45,023 nucleotides of DNA from positions 1 to 45,023 of the forward strand of contig JAPLYT010000013.1 of assembly GCA_026395435.1 (NCBI GenBank). Direction: 5' to 3'. The notes below the pieces were generated by a model, which saw only the letters and a program-made list of their open reading frames with translations, did not search any database and was not told the origin of the DNA. Shown in pieces: positions 19,552 through 27,458 of this stretch. Each line of letters begins with the position of its first letter. Positions within the stretch are counted from its first letter, which is position 1. This stretch comes from Candidatus Saccharimonadota bacterium. Lineage in GTDB: Bacteria; Patescibacteriota; Saccharimonadia; Saccharimonadales; AWTP1-31. A program made the translations under genes and the position numbers.

Positions 19552-21747
19552 TTATTTAGCTGGTTTTGGGTCAACTTTTGTATCTGTGGTTGTGTGAGGC
19601 AAGATGGTCGAATTCTTCGGTAAAGTAAAGCCGAAGGTGCTTCCCTTACCCTCTTGGCTGGTGAAGATGATTGCTCCACCTTGGGCAACAACCACCTTTT
19701 TGGCCATAAAGAGCCCCAAGCCGGTACCATCTGGTCGTGCCCGACGGGCATTATTGGCCCGGAAGAACTTCGTAAACAGGTTATGTTGTTCAGATTTCGG
19801 CACTCCCAGCCCATCGTCCACCACGGTAAATTCGATAGAATTACCCAAATCTTGCAGTGAAACCTTAATATTTCCATCTTTAGGGGTGTAATGAAGGGCA
19901 TTATCGGTAAAGTTCATGATAACTTGGCGCATTTTGGTCTCATCGAGCATCAAATCGATGAATTTAGCCGGCTTAGCGTATGTAAGGGTCTGATTTTTAC
20001 CTGCAGCAGCCTGTTTGAGCTGTTCGATCTCGGCTTCAACCACATCTGCCAGGTTAGTTTGCTTGTTTTCGATCACAAACTTACCCGTACGTAAGCGAGA
20101 AACGTTCAAGAGGTCGGCAATGAGGTATACCATGCGTTGAGAACTCATAAATGCCTGATCCAACAGCTCTTTCTGCTGTTTGTTGAGCTTTCCAGCGTCA
20201 CCTTCCACAACCATGCTCACATAGCCCTTAACAGCGGTCAGAGGGGTCCGTAGCTGGTGAGAGGCCATACTAATGAACTCATCCTTTGTTTCATCCAGTG
20301 CCTTAAGCTTCTCGTTGGTACGGCGTAACTGCCGAGTGGCGTCATTGACCTTTTCCTGCAAGGTGACGGTAAATGCTTCGATTTCTTCAAATCGCATCGC
20401 ATTTTGGACAGCAATTACGAGTTCGTTGGCGATTATGTCCAAAACCTGCAAATCTTGCTTGTTATAAGGGTTTCCACTCTGTTTACTGCCCAGTGCTAGA
20501 TAACCTAGAGCAATCGTATCCTTCCCTGTTGGCGCCAATCGTGCCAAGACAGAAATCTTATTCTTTGAAAGCACCGCCTTGATCTTGCCATGAGATTCAT
20601 CCAACTCATCAGCAACGATTATCATATCTAAATCTTGATTATGAGCTGTTAATTCGCTTATTTGGTCGTCATCCAGCTCCACTTTCTTTGAGCCAATCAC
20701 CCTTTTCGATGATCCTTCTACTTCTTTGATGATAAATGCGGCATATTCAGCCTTCAACGTGCCTTCCAGCAGCTCAGATGTCTGCCGCAACAGGGGTTGC
20801 AGATCGATATTCCCCACCAAAACCTTGTTGAGTTTATCGAGTAAATCCTGAGAATCATAGGCATCTCGATAAAATAGCCTGTTGGTAAGCTTATCGAAAA
20901 ACTTCCGAAGTGGCTGCAACGTAAACCCAAACACCAGCGTCCCAGCGAAGTAAAACGCCTGCTGCAACGTAGTCAACTTCGAAGCACCCAACAACGATGA
21001 CGATATACCAAATATTGCAATGACATAAATACCGATGAGGGTCCCAAGTGTTAATATATACCCCATGGCCCGTGCAACAATAAGGCGAATGTCAAATAAC
21101 TTATGCTTCACGATCGTATAGCCAACCATTCCAATAAGCAAAAGTGAGAATATTGGGCCAAGTCTGGAGCTGGACCAGTTATCTACATAAAGTGGAAGTA
21201 GGATGTTTGAAATCACAGCCAGAGAGGCGTAAAGCATAATACCACAAGCCACTAACTTTAATTGAAGTTTCTGACTAAAATTTAGACCACTTTTAAATTG
21301 TTTATAGATTACGAAAATAAAAAGTATGATTGAAAATACTGTGTAGGCTAAAAATACATTATATAAATACGAAGTTACGATCTCGTCTCTCGTGACTTTT
21401 TGTATAAATTTATTTGTAAAAACTAAAGGCAGTAATATTAAAGTGAATATTCTATATAACTTTACCACCGTAGTTTTACCCACGCCCGAGTCGATTGGGA
21501 AAATACATAAGAAGTTGACAATTGATGTGGCGGTGAGAATGCCGGTGAAAAACACCATTCGAGTTACTATGTCGCTTGTGAGGAATACCACCGAAAGATA
21601 ATTAAATACAGTCCATGCAATAATTGAAAATGCGAGCAATCCGAATAGCCTATTGATCTTTAATTTAGGATTTCGAATGAGAATCAATAAACCTACGATT
21701 AGCATTGCGAAGGTGCTGACTGCCATTATAATAAAATCAAATTTCAT
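19552..21747 (-). CDS. Sensor histidine kinase: multi-TM (7TM-type) N-terminal sensor, GAF, HisKA, HATPase_c
   Basis: EFISMASHQLRTPLT (H box), NFTDNALHYT (N), DDGLG (G1), LFTKFFR (F), GTGLGL (G2); hydrophobic N-terminal ~290 aa. Start placed at ATG 21747. Confidence 0.93.
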   Translation of the reverse strand: MKFDFIIMAVSTFAMLIVGLLILIRNPKLKINRLFGLLAFSIIAWTVFNYLSVVFLTSDIVTRMVFFTGILTATSIVNFLCIFPIDSGVGKTTVVKLYRIFTLILLPLVFTNKFIQKVTRDEIVTSYLYNVFLAYTVFSIILFIFVIYKQFKSGLNFSQKLQLKLVACGIMLYASLAVISNILLPLYVDNWSSSRLGPIFSLLLIGMVGYTIVKHKLFDIRLIVARAMGYILTLGTLIGIYVIAIFGISSSLLGASKLTTLQQAFYFAGTLVFGFTLQPLRKFFDKLTNRLFYRDAYDSQDLLDKLNKVLVGNIDLQPLLRQTSELLEGTLKAEYAAFIIKEVEGSSKRVIGSKKVELDDDQISELTAHNQDLDMIIVADELDESHGKIKAVLSKNKISVLARLAPTGKDTIALGYLALGSKQSGNPYNKQDLQVLDIIANELVIAVQNAMRFEEIEAFTVTLQEKVNDATRQLRRTNEKLKALDETKDEFISMASHQLRTPLTAVKGYVSMVVEGDAGKLNKQQKELLDQAFMSSQRMVYLIADLLNVSRLRTGKFVIENKQTNLADVVEAEIEQLKQAAAGKNQTLTYAKPAKFIDLMLDETKMRQVIMNFTDNALHYTPKDGNIKVSLQDLGNSIEFTVVDDGLGVPKSEQHNLFTKFFRANNARRARPDGTGLGLFMAKKVVVAQGGAIIFTSQEGKGSTFGFTLPKNSTILPHTTTDTKVDPKPAK

Positions 21748-21872
21748 ACTACAATTTTCTAAGGAACCTATTATGCTTAACTTCAATATAAATCATATCA
21801 AATAAAATGGTTTTAACGCAGAAGAAACACCAAAGTATACAAATTAAATAATAAACCTGTATTATTACTATA

Positions 21873-22775
21873 ATGATTAAATCGTTCCCTGAATTCACAA
21901 AGATCACGATCGATCTTAAGCAAGAAATATCAGAATACACTAAAAAATACGAGCTATATTCTGACTTTAGTTTTGCGAATCTATTCTCGTGGAATACCGA
22001 TGACAAAGCTGGCGTTTGTTGGCTAAATGGAAATCTAGTAGTAAAGCTACCCGACTACGTTTATGGAGGCGAGCATCTATACTCCATTCTTGGTCACCAG
22101 CGGATAGATGAATCAGTAGCAGAAATTCTTAAAATTGCTGGTAGATTAGACCTAGTGCCAGAAGTGGTAATTGGCCATATGGAGAACCCTGAGATATATG
22201 CAATAGCAGAAGATAGGGATAGTTTTGATTACGTTTACTATGTAGAAAGACTTCGTGAACTCAATGGGTCTAAATTAAAAAACAAAAGACAAAAGGTGCA
22301 CCATACTAAAAATGATTTGGGCGACCGCTTAACTTTTGAAAACATTAATAAGCTCAATAAGGAGCTACAGGTTGAAATGCTGGAAGTTCTCAGTAAATGG
22401 CAGAAACAAACTCCCCAACCAGCGGACCATACACGACTTGAACAAATTGCAATTAATAGATTATTTTCCCATATCGATCACTTCGAACTCCATATCACCA
22501 CAGCAAGAATTGATGGTAAACTAGCTGGCTTTTCCATACATGAGACAATTGATGATAAAAATTATATTTGCCATTTCGAGAAAGCAATTTTGGATGAGCA
22601 TGATGGCATATATGCTGTGCTCATTAATGAAGCCGCAAAATCATTAGATAGTTCTGGTCAAAAAAATGTCAACTGGGAACAAGATTTAGGAATCCCAGGA
22701 CTAAAACAAATTAAGCGTTCCTACGCCCCATATAAATTCCAGAAGAAATATTGGGTAAGTTCAGGAATATCTTAA
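21873..22775 (+). CDS. DUF2156 / phosphatidylglycerol lysyltransferase C-terminal-like (aminoacyl-tRNA-dependent GNAT-fold) protein
   Basis: SDFSFANLFSW, DRDSFDYVY...L.EL.G.KLKNKR, HFEKA, NWEQDLGIPGLKQIKRSYAP: characteristic DUF2156 motifs; no membrane domain. Confidence 0.85.
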   Translation: MIKSFPEFTKITIDLKQEISEYTKKYELYSDFSFANLFSWNTDDKAGVCWLNGNLVVKLPDYVYGGEHLYSILGHQRIDESVAEILKIAGRLDLVPEVVIGHMENPEIYAIAEDRDSFDYVYYVERLRELNGSKLKNKRQKVHHTKNDLGDRLTFENINKLNKELQVEMLEVLSKWQKQTPQPADHTRLEQIAINRLFSHIDHFELHITTARIDGKLAGFSIHETIDDKNYICHFEKAILDEHDGIYAVLINEAAKSLDSSGQKNVNWEQDLGIPGLKQIKRSYAPYKFQKKYWVSSGIS

Positions 22776-23578
22776 TATTTAATACTTGGCAATATTAAGG
22801 CCATACCTTGAAACAAATCATGTGTTTCTTGCGTAAGTTCAATTGCAACCGGCTTAGAAACAATCCCTAGTTCGCCTTCTTCTGTACTGAATTCATCTCT
22901 TCCCATAAGATTTTGGACACTTACGCCCACACGCTCAAAAGAATTAATTTGGCTCTCATTAATAGTCGCAAATGCAACCGTACTCCCTACTTTTGACCCG
23001 TTTCCTATTACTGTATTCACAACTGTTAGGTATGTAAGTTCGGCAGTACCCAGACCATTAAATGGCTCGAAATCCGGATCTAACTTAAAGTTCGTTTCAA
23101 CGGCTATTGATTCACGCATATTAACTCCGTGTTCATCATAGAAATCATAGAAATCAGCGAGGCTAAAATTACCACGCGAGATAAGGCTGTCAATTGTGTA
23201 CACGCCAGTAATTTGTGGGTCTTGGTCAGATTCTGGACGTTCACGTGGCCACATAATCGATGCGGCATGTGCAATCACACCATCATCCTCTCTTGTATCG
23301 ACTATCACTAAGTAATCCTGATTTAGGTCGTACAGAGGATCAACATCGCCGGCTTCAGACCAAATACGAGCTTCGTGAGTTCTGGCAAAATTTGAATACG
23401 GATGGCCTGCGCTTATCCACGCTACAGAAACAGTATTGCCAAACGCATCACGTGCTTGATCACATACACCTGCCTCAATCTGAGATATTTCTAGGTCACT
23501 CAAGTCAAATCTTGACTCAAATGCAGGACTTCCGGGGTTCTCTGTTTGATTAACTGGCATGGCGTCATCTATATGCAT
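22772..23578 (-). CDS. Hypothetical acidic protein, possibly acyltransferase (GNAT/FeeM/LuxI-like) fold
   Basis: 268-aa ORF. The pattern ARTHEARIW...YLVIVD...AHAASI...IAVETNF...FATIN...SFERVG loosely fits an acyl-CoA N-acyltransferase fold; the fold call is tentative. Confidence 0.45.
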   Translation of the reverse strand: MHIDDAMPVNQTENPGSPAFESRFDLSDLEISQIEAGVCDQARDAFGNTVSVAWISAGHPYSNFARTHEARIWSEAGDVDPLYDLNQDYLVIVDTREDDGVIAHAASIMWPRERPESDQDPQITGVYTIDSLISRGNFSLADFYDFYDEHGVNMRESIAVETNFKLDPDFEPFNGLGTAELTYLTVVNTVIGNGSKVGSTVAFATINESQINSFERVGVSVQNLMGRDEFSTEEGELGIVSKPVAIELTQETHDLFQGMALILPSIKY

Positions 23579-23584
23579 AATATA

Positions 23585-24331
23585 TTATATGTTATCACGA
23601 TTATCGACAGCATATTTATTCTTTATTTTTTTAACAACTGCAGCACCAAATGCAAAAACACCTAAAATTGGTCCAACAATTTTTGGCTCAGTCATATTAG
23701 TTAAACCCTCGGCTATCAAGAATCCTTGCAGAGAGGTTGCACCAATTAGCCATGACGTCGTAAAAAGCCCTTTCCTCAAAAGTTGTTCTTGGTCAAGCAT
23801 TAGGTCTTCCCGTTTTTTAACCTTCATAACCGCAGGGGCACCGAGTTCGAGACCGACTAATGCTTCTACGACAGGCGGCATCACTGCGTCTTCGGAGATT
23901 ATTTTTCGTGCAAATTTGCTGTCCAATAATTTATCAATTAACTTTAGAGCGGTACTTCCTTTGGGATGTGTGAGTAGATGCGACGCTGCATAAACCGCAC
24001 CACCCTCAACCAATCCAGTTGAAAGCCCTAAGGATCCCGCACTTAAATATGGGTTCTTTGTTGATGCTAAAACAGTTCCAAAGACTGCCCCATAACGCAA
24101 TGCTCCACCAATGAACGGCGCTGCTTCGGCTACAATAACAGCTTCTCTAGCATATTCACGCCATGTTCTATTTGTATTCGATTCATCATTAATGAGTGGG
24201 TCAGTTGGAATGATTTCGGTTTGAGGTCTAGTCAAGGCATCAAAATCCTCACCAAAATATTCTGCACGAATAGCAGAGACTAAAACTTCTGGATTGTTGA
24301 TAAGTGGAGCAATCGTTTGGTCTAATTCCAT
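23585..24331 (-). CDS. Hypothetical multi-pass membrane protein
   Basis: Several Gly/Ala-rich hydrophobic helices. Start placed at ATG 24331, 6 nt after a TTGATA-N17-TACAAT promoter (alternative ATG 24337). Confidence 0.6.
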   Translation of the reverse strand: MELDQTIAPLINNPEVLVSAIRAEYFGEDFDALTRPQTEIIPTDPLINDESNTNRTWREYAREAVIVAEAAPFIGGALRYGAVFGTVLASTKNPYLSAGSLGLSTGLVEGGAVYAASHLLTHPKGSTALKLIDKLLDSKFARKIISEDAVMPPVVEALVGLELGAPAVMKVKKREDLMLDQEQLLRKGLFTTSWLIGATSLQGFLIAEGLTNMTEPKIVGPILGVFAFGAAVVKKIKNKYAVDNRDNI

Positions 24332-24463
24332 TGTCATATTGTACCATTTTTTTGTTATTTTATCAAGGGTACTTTTCGTTTTATTGGTTAAATCCAAAAA
24401 GTGTAAATTTTGCAGCATAAGTGGCTTGCGCAAGAGGGGTGAAGTGGCGTATCATCAGAGCTT

Positions 24464-24832
24464 GTGCAGAAAAAAATAGCAATAGTTGAAGACGACAGAC
24501 CTATTGCTGAAATGTACAAGTTTAAGCTTGAATCTGCTGGATTCAAGACTTGTGTTGCTTCCAACGGCGTTGAGGGACTTGTAGTAATTGAAGAGCAAAG
24601 CCCGGATTTGATTTTGCTTGATTTACGGATGCCGGTAATGAGCGGCGACGAGATGCTCGAGAAATTGCGTCAGACTGAATGGGGTGCTCCAATTCGTGTC
24701 ATCATTTTGACAAACATTAGTAGAGATGAAGCCCCTCGTGCACTTGGGTTATTGAACGTGGATCGATATATCGTCAAAGCACATCACACGCCACAACAAG
24801 TTCTCGACATAATTAACGAAGTACTATTATAA
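24464..24832 (+). CDS. Single-domain response regulator (receiver)
   Basis: IAIVEDD, PDLILLDLRMPVMSG, ILTN, YIVK; GTG start. Confidence 0.92.
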   Translation: MQKKIAIVEDDRPIAEMYKFKLESAGFKTCVASNGVEGLVVIEEQSPDLILLDLRMPVMSGDEMLEKLRQTEWGAPIRVIILTNISRDEAPRALGLLNVDRYIVKAHHTPQQVLDIINEVLL

Positions 24833-24899
24833 AGTTTTCTTTTTGAAAAATACCTTATACTGGAGTATGTTGTAATTACTAACTTAGGAGGGCCATGGT

Positions 24900-25073
24900 A
24901 TGAATGAGCAACTACGAATTAATCTAGCAGAAACTGCAGATGTGGCATTAACGTCACAAAATTTAGGTAGGATAACAATTCTTGAAGCACTTGCAATAGA
25001 ATCCGATCTAATTTCCATAGATGGAATGGGGCGTTGCACTCCTGATGGTACAGGCGTCGACTTCGATGACTAA
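24900..25073 (+). CDS. Putative ATP-grasp RiPP (graspetide) precursor, 57 aa: MNEQLRINLAETADVALTSQNLGRITILEALAIESDLISIDGMGRCTPDGTGVDFDD
   Basis: Manually translated (below the ORF-track cutoff); AGGAGG at 24886-24891, 8 nt before the ATG; C-terminus with Cys/Thr nucleophiles and D-F-D-D acids; ATP-grasp ligase two genes downstream. Confidence 0.7.
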   Translation: MNEQLRINLAETADVALTSQNLGRITILEALAIESDLISIDGMGRCTPDGTGVDFDD

Positions 25074-25105
25074 ACTTAGTACTTAATTAATACATAGGCG
25101 ACAGT

Positions 25106-25756
25106 ATTATAAAAACCTATTATAAATTTCCAGAATATCGAAAGGAACTTATTGATCTTGCCAATAAAGATCAGCTTGATTTACGCTCGAAATTACACGT
25201 TCTAAACCAAATTTCGGATAAGAAAATTAGGCAGTCTAAACTCGATGGGCTCTACTATGACTGTCACATGCGTGCGCTTCGTATGCAGGAGATAATGCTT
25301 AAAATAAAAGCACCAAGTATTGAGTCGATCGGGACCGATGGTTGCGAGGCGATATTATTACTTGCGCAACATTCATACCTAAGCTGCATGAAAGAAGTGC
25401 TGAGTATATTTCTAGAACAACACGCCAATAATTTAGATTCTGTGCCGATAATTCATTTACCTTCATTACAAGACAGAATTATGGTCTTCGAAACTAGAAA
25501 ACAGCATTACGGTACGCAGTGGAAACAAGATCCTAAAAGTGGTCAAATATATCTTATTGAAATGGATGATTTCAATTTTGTTAATGATCGGCGTGCGATA
25601 TTTGGATTAAAAAAGATCAGAAGACCCGTAAATCTTGCTAAAGGAGCGGTTAAATATCCTTTGGGAAAAGGGCTGGCAAAAGAAAGTGATCAAAAAGCAT
25701 TGTCTGCTGAGGCCTACAAGGAAATGACCAGATACGCGAAGTGTCTGGTCATTTAA
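25106..25756 (+). CDS. DUF6624-like protein
   Basis: LLAQHS, LQDRI...KQHYGTQW, VNDRRAIFGL motifs. The frame is open from 25091 and encodes the expected ELIDLANKDQLDLR segment before the first ATG (25268), so the start is uncertain (ATT/ATA at 25106/25109). Confidence 0.65.
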   Translation: MIKTYYKFPEYRKELIDLANKDQLDLRSKLHVLNQISDKKIRQSKLDGLYYDCHMRALRMQEIMLKIKAPSIESIGTDGCEAILLLAQHSYLSCMKEVLSIFLEQHANNLDSVPIIHLPSLQDRIMVFETRKQHYGTQWKQDPKSGQIYLIEMDDFNFVNDRRAIFGLKKIRRPVNLAKGAVKYPLGKGLAKESDQKALSAEAYKEMTRYAKCLVI

Positions 25757-25765
25757 ATCTGTTTT

Positions 25766-26518
25766 ATGGAAAAATCTATACTTATAGCGGCGTCAAACTA
25801 CGATGAACATGCCTATGGACCAGTAACCGCTATTTTAGATTCAAAAGGTTTCAATGTAGTTACCTACTTAACCGACAAAGCACTTTCGGGCGAAGATGAT
25901 TTCCATGTTTATGTGAATGAGGATGCAGAGGTGCAATTGGCGTACAATGGGCAGCCTATTGATGTCGAAAATATTGGAGCCGCCTGGTTTAGAAAATTAT
26001 TGGCTTTTGAGCCGATCACAAGCGATCCAACTAAAAAACTATATATCAATTCAGAAATATTACACCTACATGATACTATTTGGGATTTATATCCCGACAA
26101 TCTTTGGTTAAACTCTCCAAATAATATTAAAAGGGCTGATCGAAAAATTAGACAGCTTCAGGTCGCGAAGTTAGCTGGTTTTACTATCCCGCCGACAATA
26201 ATATCAAGCACCTGGGAAAATATTGAACAAAATTTAATGCCAAATTATGATGAGGATATTATTGTAAAGACTATTCGGGGGATAATCAATGATGAAGAGA
26301 CAATAAAAGCCCATTTTACAACTGTACTGACGCACGAGCAAATACTGGCTATGAAAAACAGCGTGTCCCCCTATTTAGGACTTTACCAGCCTTTCATAGA
26401 TAAATTAAGGGAGTGGCGTGTCACCGTTGTGGGCAATGATGTACATTCTGCGTCCATAGAGACTGATCTTGCGGCAAAAGATCCGTATCTTGCCAACTTT
26501 TACCCCCTAGTTTTTTAA
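25766..26518 (+). pseudogene. MvdC/MvdD-like ATP-grasp peptide ligase, C-terminally truncated
   Basis: AAWFRK, WLNSP...ADRKIRQLQVAKLAGFTIPPTIIS, IIVKTI, YQPFIDKLREWRVTVVG. Similarity ends at ...AAKD (~26482); the D...FLE.NP.GQW metal-binding end is missing. Confidence 0.8.
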
Positions 26519-26885
26519 ACAGCTTCGAACTCTTCTCATTAGCAAAAGCGAGTATTAGTGAAGGTCGTAGTTCTTGGCTGACTTTTGAGACTACCTTACG
26601 GGTTAGCTCTGATCCTATTTTATGCCCTCGTAGATCAGGGTTAACGACCAACGCACCGAATTCAACGACATCACTGGAATAAATTACTGACACAGCAGCA
26701 TAACCTGCAAGTTCATTGTCTAGATACGCACACGTCGACAGATGATGACGAGCAAGGCTCTCATAACTTAATGGGATCATTTCATCGGGCCTATTTGACC
26801 ACTCAATTAAATTGTGTACGTCTTGGTCCGATTCGAGATCAAGATCTCTAAACACAAGTCCAGATTCATGTCCAAAATTATTCAT
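26421..26885 (-). CDS. GNAT family N-acetyltransferase (3' end overlaps the ATP-grasp gene)
   Basis: EFGALVVNPDLRGHKIGSEL (acetyl-CoA motif A), ANEKSSKLFKKLG. Confidence 0.8.
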   Translation of the reverse strand: MNNFGHESGLVFRDLDLESDQDVHNLIEWSNRPDEMIPLSYESLARHHLSTCAYLDNELAGYAAVSVIYSSDVVEFGALVVNPDLRGHKIGSELTRKVVSKVSQELRPSLILAFANEKSSKLFKKLGGKSWQDTDLLPQDQSLWTQNVHHCPQR

Positions 26886-27086: not shown

Positions 27087-27458
27087 ATGGCTATAAAAGT
27101 TGCAATTATTGAAGATGATCAAGCGATCAGTCAGATGTATCGGATTAAATTCGAGGCCGAAGGCTACGATGTAGAAACTGCTGAAAATGGCAAGGTTGGA
27201 CTGGCTGTATGTGAGAAAATGAAGCCAGAAATCATCCTGCTGGACCTTATGATGCCCGAGATGAATGGTGATGAAATGCTCGAGAAATTGCGTCAAACCG
27301 ACTGGGGTAAATCGATCAAAGTCGTTATCTTAACAAACATGGGTGAGCAAGAAATTCCTGCCAGCGTCAAATCACAAAACGTTAGTGCCGTAATCCTTAA
27401 AGCAGACATGACTCCTCGTCAGGTCGCCGAACTCGTCAAAAAAACCATCGACGGCTAG
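27087..27458 (+). CDS. Single-domain response regulator (receiver)
   Basis: VAIIEDD, PEIILLDLMMPEMNG, ILTN, ILKA. Confidence 0.93.
   Translation: MAIKVAIIEDDQAISQMYRIKFEAEGYDVETAENGKVGLAVCEKMKPEIILLDLMMPEMNGDEMLEKLRQTDWGKSIKVVILTNMGEQEIPASVKSQNVSAVILKADMTPRQVAELVKKTIDG

Follow-up and report, generated by a model that had tools for sequence, protein, structure and literature searches.

A decaying cassette of the predicted graspetide group 38 in a Candidatus Saccharimonadota genome and its intact relatives with a putative cysteine donor

Does a short reading frame with an aspartate-rich end, standing upstream of an ATP-grasp gene in a Candidatus Saccharimonadota genome, encode a graspetide precursor, and could the cysteine in its core serve as a side-chain donor? 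The question was raised by a preliminary description made from the letters alone, and we have followed it up on contig JAPLYT010000013.1 (the window, that is the whole stretch of 45,023 nucleotides analysed) and on related loci. In all likelihood the locus is a cassette of a group 38 precursor, a DUF6624-like gene and an ATP-grasp ligase, whose copy in the window is probably inactive and whose intact sisters would probably link both Cys46 and Thr47 to Asp side chains at the C-terminus, two in number. The features discussed are the following.

24464 to 24832, forward strand: response regulator, left flank of the inserted block (domain match; relatives)
24886 to 24891, forward strand: Shine-Dalgarno sequence AGGAGG, with the precursor ATG 8 nt downstream (sequence)
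24900 to 25073, forward strand: graspetide group 38 precursor, 57 aa, of the putative Cys-donor (GR-C-T...DFDD) subtype (profile matches; table rows of Carter 2026)
24966 to 24995, forward strand: conserved leader motif GRITILEALA, aa 23-32, candidate ligase-binding element (alignment columns)
25035 to 25070, forward strand: core Cys46-Asp57, with the putative donors Cys46 and Thr47 and the invariant acceptor candidates Asp54 and Asp57 (column counts)
25091 to 25756, forward strand: DUF6624-like partner, open frame of 221 codons (weak profile match)
25766 to 26518, forward strand: MvdC/D-type ATP-grasp ligase, truncated, homologous up to residue 239 (to 26482) and followed by 11 foreign residues and a stop (models; alignment)
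26421 to 26885, reverse strand: truncated GNAT acetyltransferase facing the ligase gene, with 138 of 181 native residues left (domain match; alignment)
26471 to 26482, no strand: 12-bp overlap of the ligase AAKD (forward) and GNAT DLLP (reverse) stretches, probable microhomology deletion joint (alignments; contigs of four runs)
27087 to 27458, forward strand: response regulator, right flank, the pair being nearly adjacent in relatives (domain match; relatives)

The 57-aa ORF (24900-25073), which ends in GMGRCTPDGTGVDFDD, is real: the perfect AGGAGG and the position upstream of an ATP-grasp gene are there in the sequence as had been described, and the profile matches go beyond chance. The profile was seeded with 12 hand-picked upstream peptides, and its search space was the window and 139 fetched loci, 140 sequences with 16,700 stop-to-stop ORFs in all; it gave 28 distinct matches at E<0.01, 16 of them not seeds, and by their coordinates all 28 lie just 5' of an ATP-grasp gene on the same strand. 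A locus was counted as a close-ligase locus when its ligase scored 480 bits or more and 1 kb or more of DNA was available upstream; four further loci reached this score but had too little upstream DNA and were left out. Precursor, DUF6624-like gene and ligase were found together in 19/19 distinct loci of this kind, 10 of which had supplied no seed, and among the distant ligases (<200 bits) only locus L051 gave a precursor-profile match, a weak one. A 25-row precursor alignment led to 129 related proteins, 120 of which were listed and analysed, and a second precursor search gave 87 representatives at 50% clustering; screening of its 35 new matches removed six long proteins with repeats, a peptide without a core and another that was divergent, and 27 cores remained. 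Collected and aligned, as the preliminary description had proposed, the small ORFs near the ligase homologues are conserved in every close locus and in 120 short relatives. The locus and genome tallies given here include the unpublished G058 and G296, on which no other claim rests.

The arrangement of the cassette is not uniform: the DUF gene precedes the precursor in L003 (4052-5981), two precursors are present in L071, L075 gave no DUF match, and other precursor cores occur on neighbouring ligase branches (variant loci including L010-L012, L040 and L073). Several homologous loci carry a strong hairpin just past the precursor stop, where the window has none. A two-codon out-of-frame ORF (ATG GTA TGA, 24895-24903) overlaps the precursor start 3 nt past the Shine-Dalgarno sequence and is probably too close to it for use. 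Promoter-like sites number 9, with 9.6 expected.

Residue conservation was counted in a MAFFT alignment of the 120 precursors, a set that includes related sequences and for which the profile itself was built on such cores. The leader consensus is [RK]-[IVML]-T-[VIL]-[LF]-E-A-L-A, with L31 and A32 in 120/120, and aa 27-31 form a short helix in a low-confidence structure model of the precursor. The string ITILEALAI had been put forward as the equivalent of the microviridin leader motif; its T-[VIL]-[LF]-E-A-L-A part is indeed conserved, but the final Ile recurs in only 2/120 precursors. In the core, column 46 is always nucleophilic (Ser 75, Thr 40, Cys 5), Thr fills column 47 in 115 precursors and Ser in the other 5, column 54 is Asp in 119 and Glu in one, column 56 varies more (Asp 92, Glu 23, Ser 4, Gln 1) and column 57 is Asp in 120/120. 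Further upstream, column 43 is Ser in 106/120, the remainder being Met, Leu or Arg. Of the Thr residues that could form the Thr-Asp esters formerly suggested, only Thr47 stands in a conserved column; Thr51 is poorly conserved (5/120). The conserved leader, donor and acceptor columns and the MvdC/D-type ligase argue, in agreement with the preliminary description, for a graspetide precursor and not for RimK-associated noise.

The family to which this cassette belongs is already catalogued. Group 38 was defined by Carter, Ramesh, Saad, Mubarik and Mitchell (2026; PMC13097080) as a predicted, uncharacterised group with at least 31 precursor rows in the supplementary table, mostly from Saccharimonadales plus some Actinomycetota, and with DUF or no-HMM proteins as neighbours according to the text. 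By eye, the precursors of L005, L007, L013, L039, L040 and L069 match group 38 rows (PMC13097080), and the window peptide is 42-49% identical to the aligned ends of the L005 and L007 precursors. Alignment scores after the EFI-EST formula, with a threshold of 70, lie at 85-121 when eight members of group 38 are compared with four intact Cys-type ligases, and at 48-65 over 240 aa, below the threshold, for the truncated window ligase. It had been suggested that the locus, with no microviridin leader motif, could represent a distinct group; the family in question is the one listed as group 38 (PMC13097080). The window shares with it the LEALA leader, the Ser/Thr-Thr...DxDD core, probably the ligase clade, and a neighbour of unknown function, the DUF of the close loci; unlike the window, group 38 is not linked to DUF6624 in the accessible part of the text, and the window copy is truncated. 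The first row for WP_355065411.1 in group 38 resembles by eye a fragment of the DUF6624-like partner (PMC13097080). The Cys-donor subtype was not found among the group's rows: neither GR-C-T nor GR-T-T...DFDD occurs in the group 38 rows searched, and the only two rows with GRCT among the supplementary rows searched both belong to group 14 (PMC13097080).

Of the 118 sequences that could be parsed, 14 belong to the window subtype, without Ser43 and ending in DxDD (Thr in 8, Cys in 5, Ser in 1), and its Cys46 takes a position that is elsewhere reserved for Ser/Thr donors. Altogether Cys46 was found in eight distinct precursors, L009 included, three of which (L001, L009, L060) stand beside ligases in intact loci. 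Because column 46 admits only Ser, Thr and Cys, and because the Cys is kept in eight precursors, three of them next to ligases of intact loci, a natural Cys-Asp thioester in the Cys subtype would be plausible, with a chance somewhat below even. The broader proposal, in which a group 38 sub-lineage of the episymbiotic Saccharimonadales would use Cys as a natural donor and form a Cys46-Asp thioester beside a Thr47-Asp ester, we hold a shade more tentatively.

A graspetide whose Cys46 stays uncrosslinked must be weighed against this proposal, and we give it two chances in every five or so: only the Thr47-Asp ester would be formed, and the thiol would be free, engaged in a disulfide dimer or metal-binding. 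Thioesters are labile in the cytoplasm, and the subtype, which also lacks the conserved Ser43, may simply be a simplified one. In the same direction, published thioesters are called non-native (PMC13097080), and one ligase set (Myx) left Cys variants uncyclised, the MyxA CC variant indicating that some graspetide ligases refuse Cys donors (PMC12848669); ester-forming ligases, for their part, accept engineered Cys (PMC12291112). Against an unlinked Cys46 speaks that column 46 never holds a non-nucleophile, either in the 120 precursors or in the 27 cores of the second search, which by eye have Ser in 14, Thr in 11 and Cys in 2, and that the Cys has persisted, encoded by TGC as well as by TGT, next to ligases whose identity is only about 50-63%. 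Furthermore one ligase clade mixes Cys with Thr types: a 28-row tree places L002 and P0005 (Thr) together with the window, L001, P0004 and L060 (Cys) at a support of 93/98, and L009 falls outside, the ligases of P0004, P0005 and P0017 having been matched to precursors only through contigs of equal size. A single origin of the Cys types does not appear in the best tree, which has three changes, yet it is not rejected (p-AU 0.136); a 62-row quick tree gives a similar Cys/Thr clade with L007 also inside.

For the intact cassettes the following course of events may be proposed. The ligase would bind the LEALA leader, as the conservation of this element suggests, and would phosphorylate the Asp side chains with ATP, after which a side-chain nucleophile would attack; such phosphorylation of Asp/Glu and nucleophilic attack are established for graspetide ligases as a class (PMC13097080). 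Since two near-invariant nucleophile columns (46, 47) are accompanied by two near-invariant Asp columns (54, 57), two nested rings would be expected by analogy with plesiocin, an inner one between Thr47 and Asp54 and an outer one between residue 46 and Asp57, and with Cys at position 46 the outer link could, at not quite even odds, be a thioester. The DUF6624-like protein, which has no signal peptide, might best be seen as a peptide-binding partner or chaperone, and the cassette seems to contain no dedicated protease or exporter. Group 38 peptides are predicted graspetides, with rings and a topology predicted here from sequence.

Arg stands directly before Cys46 in all eight Cys-type peptides, therefore a cut at this place would free an N-terminal Cys. 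If the thioester is indeed formed, this freed Cys would let it shift to a stable amide, a natural counterpart of the engineered graspetide/native-chemical-ligation route, and the intact sisters would carry a sulfur-linked ring of a type so far seen only in engineered peptides. A precedent is the engineered ThfA/ThfB system, in which the ligase makes a thioester with an S-to-N shift, the ThfA thioester being engineered and not natural (PMC12291112). The introduction of PMC13097080 names Ser, Thr and Lys as graspetide donors and calls thioesters non-native; with a lineage in which Cys is retained at the donor position, the natural chemistry of the class would become broader and a thiol-tuned ligase would be available. 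A literature search, which covered few subscription papers, showed neither a natural thioester graspetide nor a characterised member of group 38. The cassette is moreover a minimal three-gene test bed for DUF6624 and for the use of modified peptides by ultra-small episymbionts. The window copy itself matters little in this respect, being a decaying insert; it is in the intact sisters L001, L009 and L060 that the putative natural thioester is directly testable.

The ligase of the window copy is truncated, a point absent from the preliminary description, as is the lack of a canonical start in the DUF frame. The protein has 250 aa versus about 328 aa in homologues; the 30 relatives listed are 37-53% identical to it and mostly 318-348 aa long, one having 218 aa. 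It follows its homologues up to A237-K238-D239, where 29/29 aligned homologues continue with D-W-R and then with FD and EC(N), so that about 89 C-terminal residues with the DWR, FD and ECN motifs are missing. The D(F/W)R loop of graspetide ligases is reported to be critical for activity (PMC13097080; bioRxiv 2021.03.09.434688), and the DWR, FD and ExN motifs are present in the ligases of L001, L009, L060 and P0004. As the ligase is without its catalytic C-terminal quarter, the locus is likely inactive.

It is very improbable that the window copy still functions, whether through the 250-aa ligase as it is or through an activity contributed by some other enzyme or by a strain living alongside. 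The precursor ORF, its ribosome binding site and the DUF frame are undamaged and the precursor sequence is found on 16 contigs, but the ligase motifs named above are lost, no second ligase and no missing ligase remainder was found elsewhere in the genome (938 kb, 98% complete), and the DUF frame is without a canonical start, which is present in 27/27 parsed DUF homologues (one of 28 being unparsed). The truncated ligase cluster is found on only 3 contigs, against 16 for the identical precursor, so that a different ligase allele may exist in other strains of the species; the GNAT cluster is present on 14 contigs, and the longest contig is of 631,054 bp for both precursor and GNAT.

The facing GNAT protein is identical over 138 aa to the 181-aa allele P0032 and diverges from it at the joint, and bases 26471-26482 fit both parent genes, the fit on the ligase side being deduced from conserved residues; judged by the parent gene lengths, at least about 400 bp are missing there. 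That the truncation is an assembly chimera, the true genome having an intact ligase and GNAT, is a reading to which we give about one chance in twenty: an intact GNAT allele (P0032) does exist in the protein set, but the joint is crossed identically, with no differing letters, by contigs of four runs (X1, X2, X4, X5) from two studies, although the assembly itself may derive from X1 and X2, and a 12-bp repeat is shorter than the word sizes usual in assembly. An assembly artefact at 26471-26482 was rejected on the basis of these bridging contigs; runs X6-X9 gave short pieces only, none of them reaching the joint. The intact GNAT family (P0032-P0034, L141) has a C-terminal cysteine cluster, CHICP...CC, which is gone from the window copy.

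The family assignment of the ligase, MvdC/D-like as had been claimed, is borne out. Its best matches, at 70-77 bits, are the MvdC, MvdD and SAV_5884 models, whose cut-offs (350-475) lie far higher. A profile made from intact ligases matches the structures of AMdnB, MdnB/C, CdnC and PsnB (among them 5ig8/5ig9 and 7drm) with E values from 1e-49 to 3e-9. The reading of the enzyme as a RimK-like amino-acid ligase, which would lengthen the acidic end of a small carrier protein instead of making macrocycles, is scarcely credible and was rejected, for in spite of a weak RimK match (TIGR00768, 25.4 bits, cut-off 143), the acidic precursor end and one source that labels the relatives 'RimK-like', the MvdC/D models score three times higher, the solved structures matched are graspetide ligases and conserved Ser/Thr/Cys donors precede the Asp motif. 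The outcome named in advance as fatal, RimK homologues with no similar peptide beside them, was not what we found, the precursor being conserved next to these ligases.

The partner gene is a putative member of the DUF6624 family. The window protein reaches 19.4 bits against DUF6624 (PF20329; cut-off 27, E 8e-4), a weak match, and the L001 partner 24.4 bits against the same cut-off; 21 of 30 partners match at E<=0.01, the best at 4.8e-12, and all 30 Atlas feature matches for the L001 partner are DUF6624 clusters. Invariant or nearly invariant positions include DQ, His90, Asp124, Gln134, Gly137 and Arg163 (L001 numbering). The structure model is confident (pLDDT 93.7) and mainly helical; Foldseek found no match to it at E<=0.001, and the best VIA Z of 9.9 (rmsd 4.2, 109 aligned) points to generic helical bundles. 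No signal peptide was seen by eye in the window protein. Ahead of the conserved DQ motif its frame contains no ATG, GTG or TTG, the first ATG lying past DQ at 25268, and it is possible either that an ATA/ATT start is used or that the start codon has been lost as a second lesion. A perfect 14-bp hairpin at the end of the gene (25722-25754) is unmatched in 19 other loci. By analogy with MirC, the partner might tentatively be seen as a peptide-binding protein or chaperone, an enzymatic role being possible too. It had been called unfamiliar from characterised clusters; it is constantly present in the close loci, and DUF6624 is already reported beside the predicted groups 18, 20, 23 and 42, and flagged as a possible undiscovered biosynthetic protein (PMC13097080).

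Candidate-phyla bacteria with a DUF6624-family partner beside a graspetide ligase are found in these groups and, if 'cluster 23' of Makarova 2022 is DUF6624, as it putatively is, also in CPR branches 1 and 2 of that study (PMC8939145); there too the partner has conserved His and Arg residues. In contrast to branch 1, the window leader has no Phhx(1,2)h motif and no Pro at all, and the core has no TxxxTx(6-10)Dx(1-4)D, Thr51 standing five residues from the last Asp; cluster 23 includes numerous lipoproteins, unlike the window partner with its lack of a signal peptide. In the 11 Makarova supplementary files searched neither Saccharibacteria nor a LEALA string was found (PMC8939145). Plesiocin (PsnA2/PsnB, group 2, TTxxxxEE) is similar in its two adjacent donors, two acceptors and D(F/W)R ligase loop, and its rings form a nested hairpin (bioRxiv 2021.03.09.434688), to which the window topology is likened on the strength of the peptide letters; the window cassette differs from it by Asp instead of Glu acceptors, a single core, another leader and no transporter or peptidase. 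The microviridin system (MdnA/MdnB/MdnC, group 1) provides the best-scoring ligase models and structures, but the window has neither the PFFARFL leader nor the TxKYPSD core and only one ligase. Rosaritide (MirA/B/C, group 21) is a precedent for a required partner protein, although MirC is SurA/PPIase-like and not DUF6624 (PMC13097080).

The surroundings of the cassette indicate how it may have come to its place. Its GC content is 38%, versus 45% in the window, and the two flanking response regulators are separated by only 46-130 bp in G001, G006 and G014 and by about 650 bp in G012. A low-GC block would have been inserted between the two tandem regulators, and the ligase gene and the GNAT gene opposite it would then both have lost their 3' ends by recombination at the 12-bp repeat; the joint is plain in the letters, and the order of events is the one that we infer. 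What the window holds is a decaying insert. Neither the GNAT nor an S8 peptidase close by was accepted as a cassette member, since the ORFs of 59 related loci, many of which have short flanks, included no homologue of either. Cassettes that are broken or partial occur commonly (L030:4971-5636, L048/L056, L015, L016, L052, P0186), and in one of the genomes (G364) the ligase is divided at about residue 240, close to the break point of the window.

Homologues of the same response regulators adjoin 8 of the 59 related loci (L003, L005, L007, L011, L015, L041, L083, L089), the L007 cassette lying between the regulator pair in the opposite orientation, and four of the 59 are near murD; the regulator neighbourhood is either an insertion hotspot or a sign of a regulatory link. 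Next to the regulator pair a low-GC3 block lies upstream (19552-24433), with a membrane histidine kinase, an LPG_synthase_C-like protein and two others; 22772-23578 and 23585-24433 in this block gave no Pfam or NCBIfam match.

The distribution of the cassette in the host order is patchy, with a ligase match at E<=1e-20 in 20/401 genomes of the order and in 0/25 of the window's own family; no close ligase (E<=1e-80) was found in the 401 genomes of a Streptomyces-centred family. There are hints of transfer between the episymbionts and their host phylum, and the alternative to actinobacterial nesting is not rejected (p-AU 0.104). Streptomyces rows are listed in group 38 of the supplementary table (PMC13097080). 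In both trees Actinomycetota group 38 ligases (P0016, P0026, L064, L071; Micromonospora, Streptacidiphilus) nest among those of Saccharimonadales, and the Actinomycetota cassettes have a lower GC content than their flanks.
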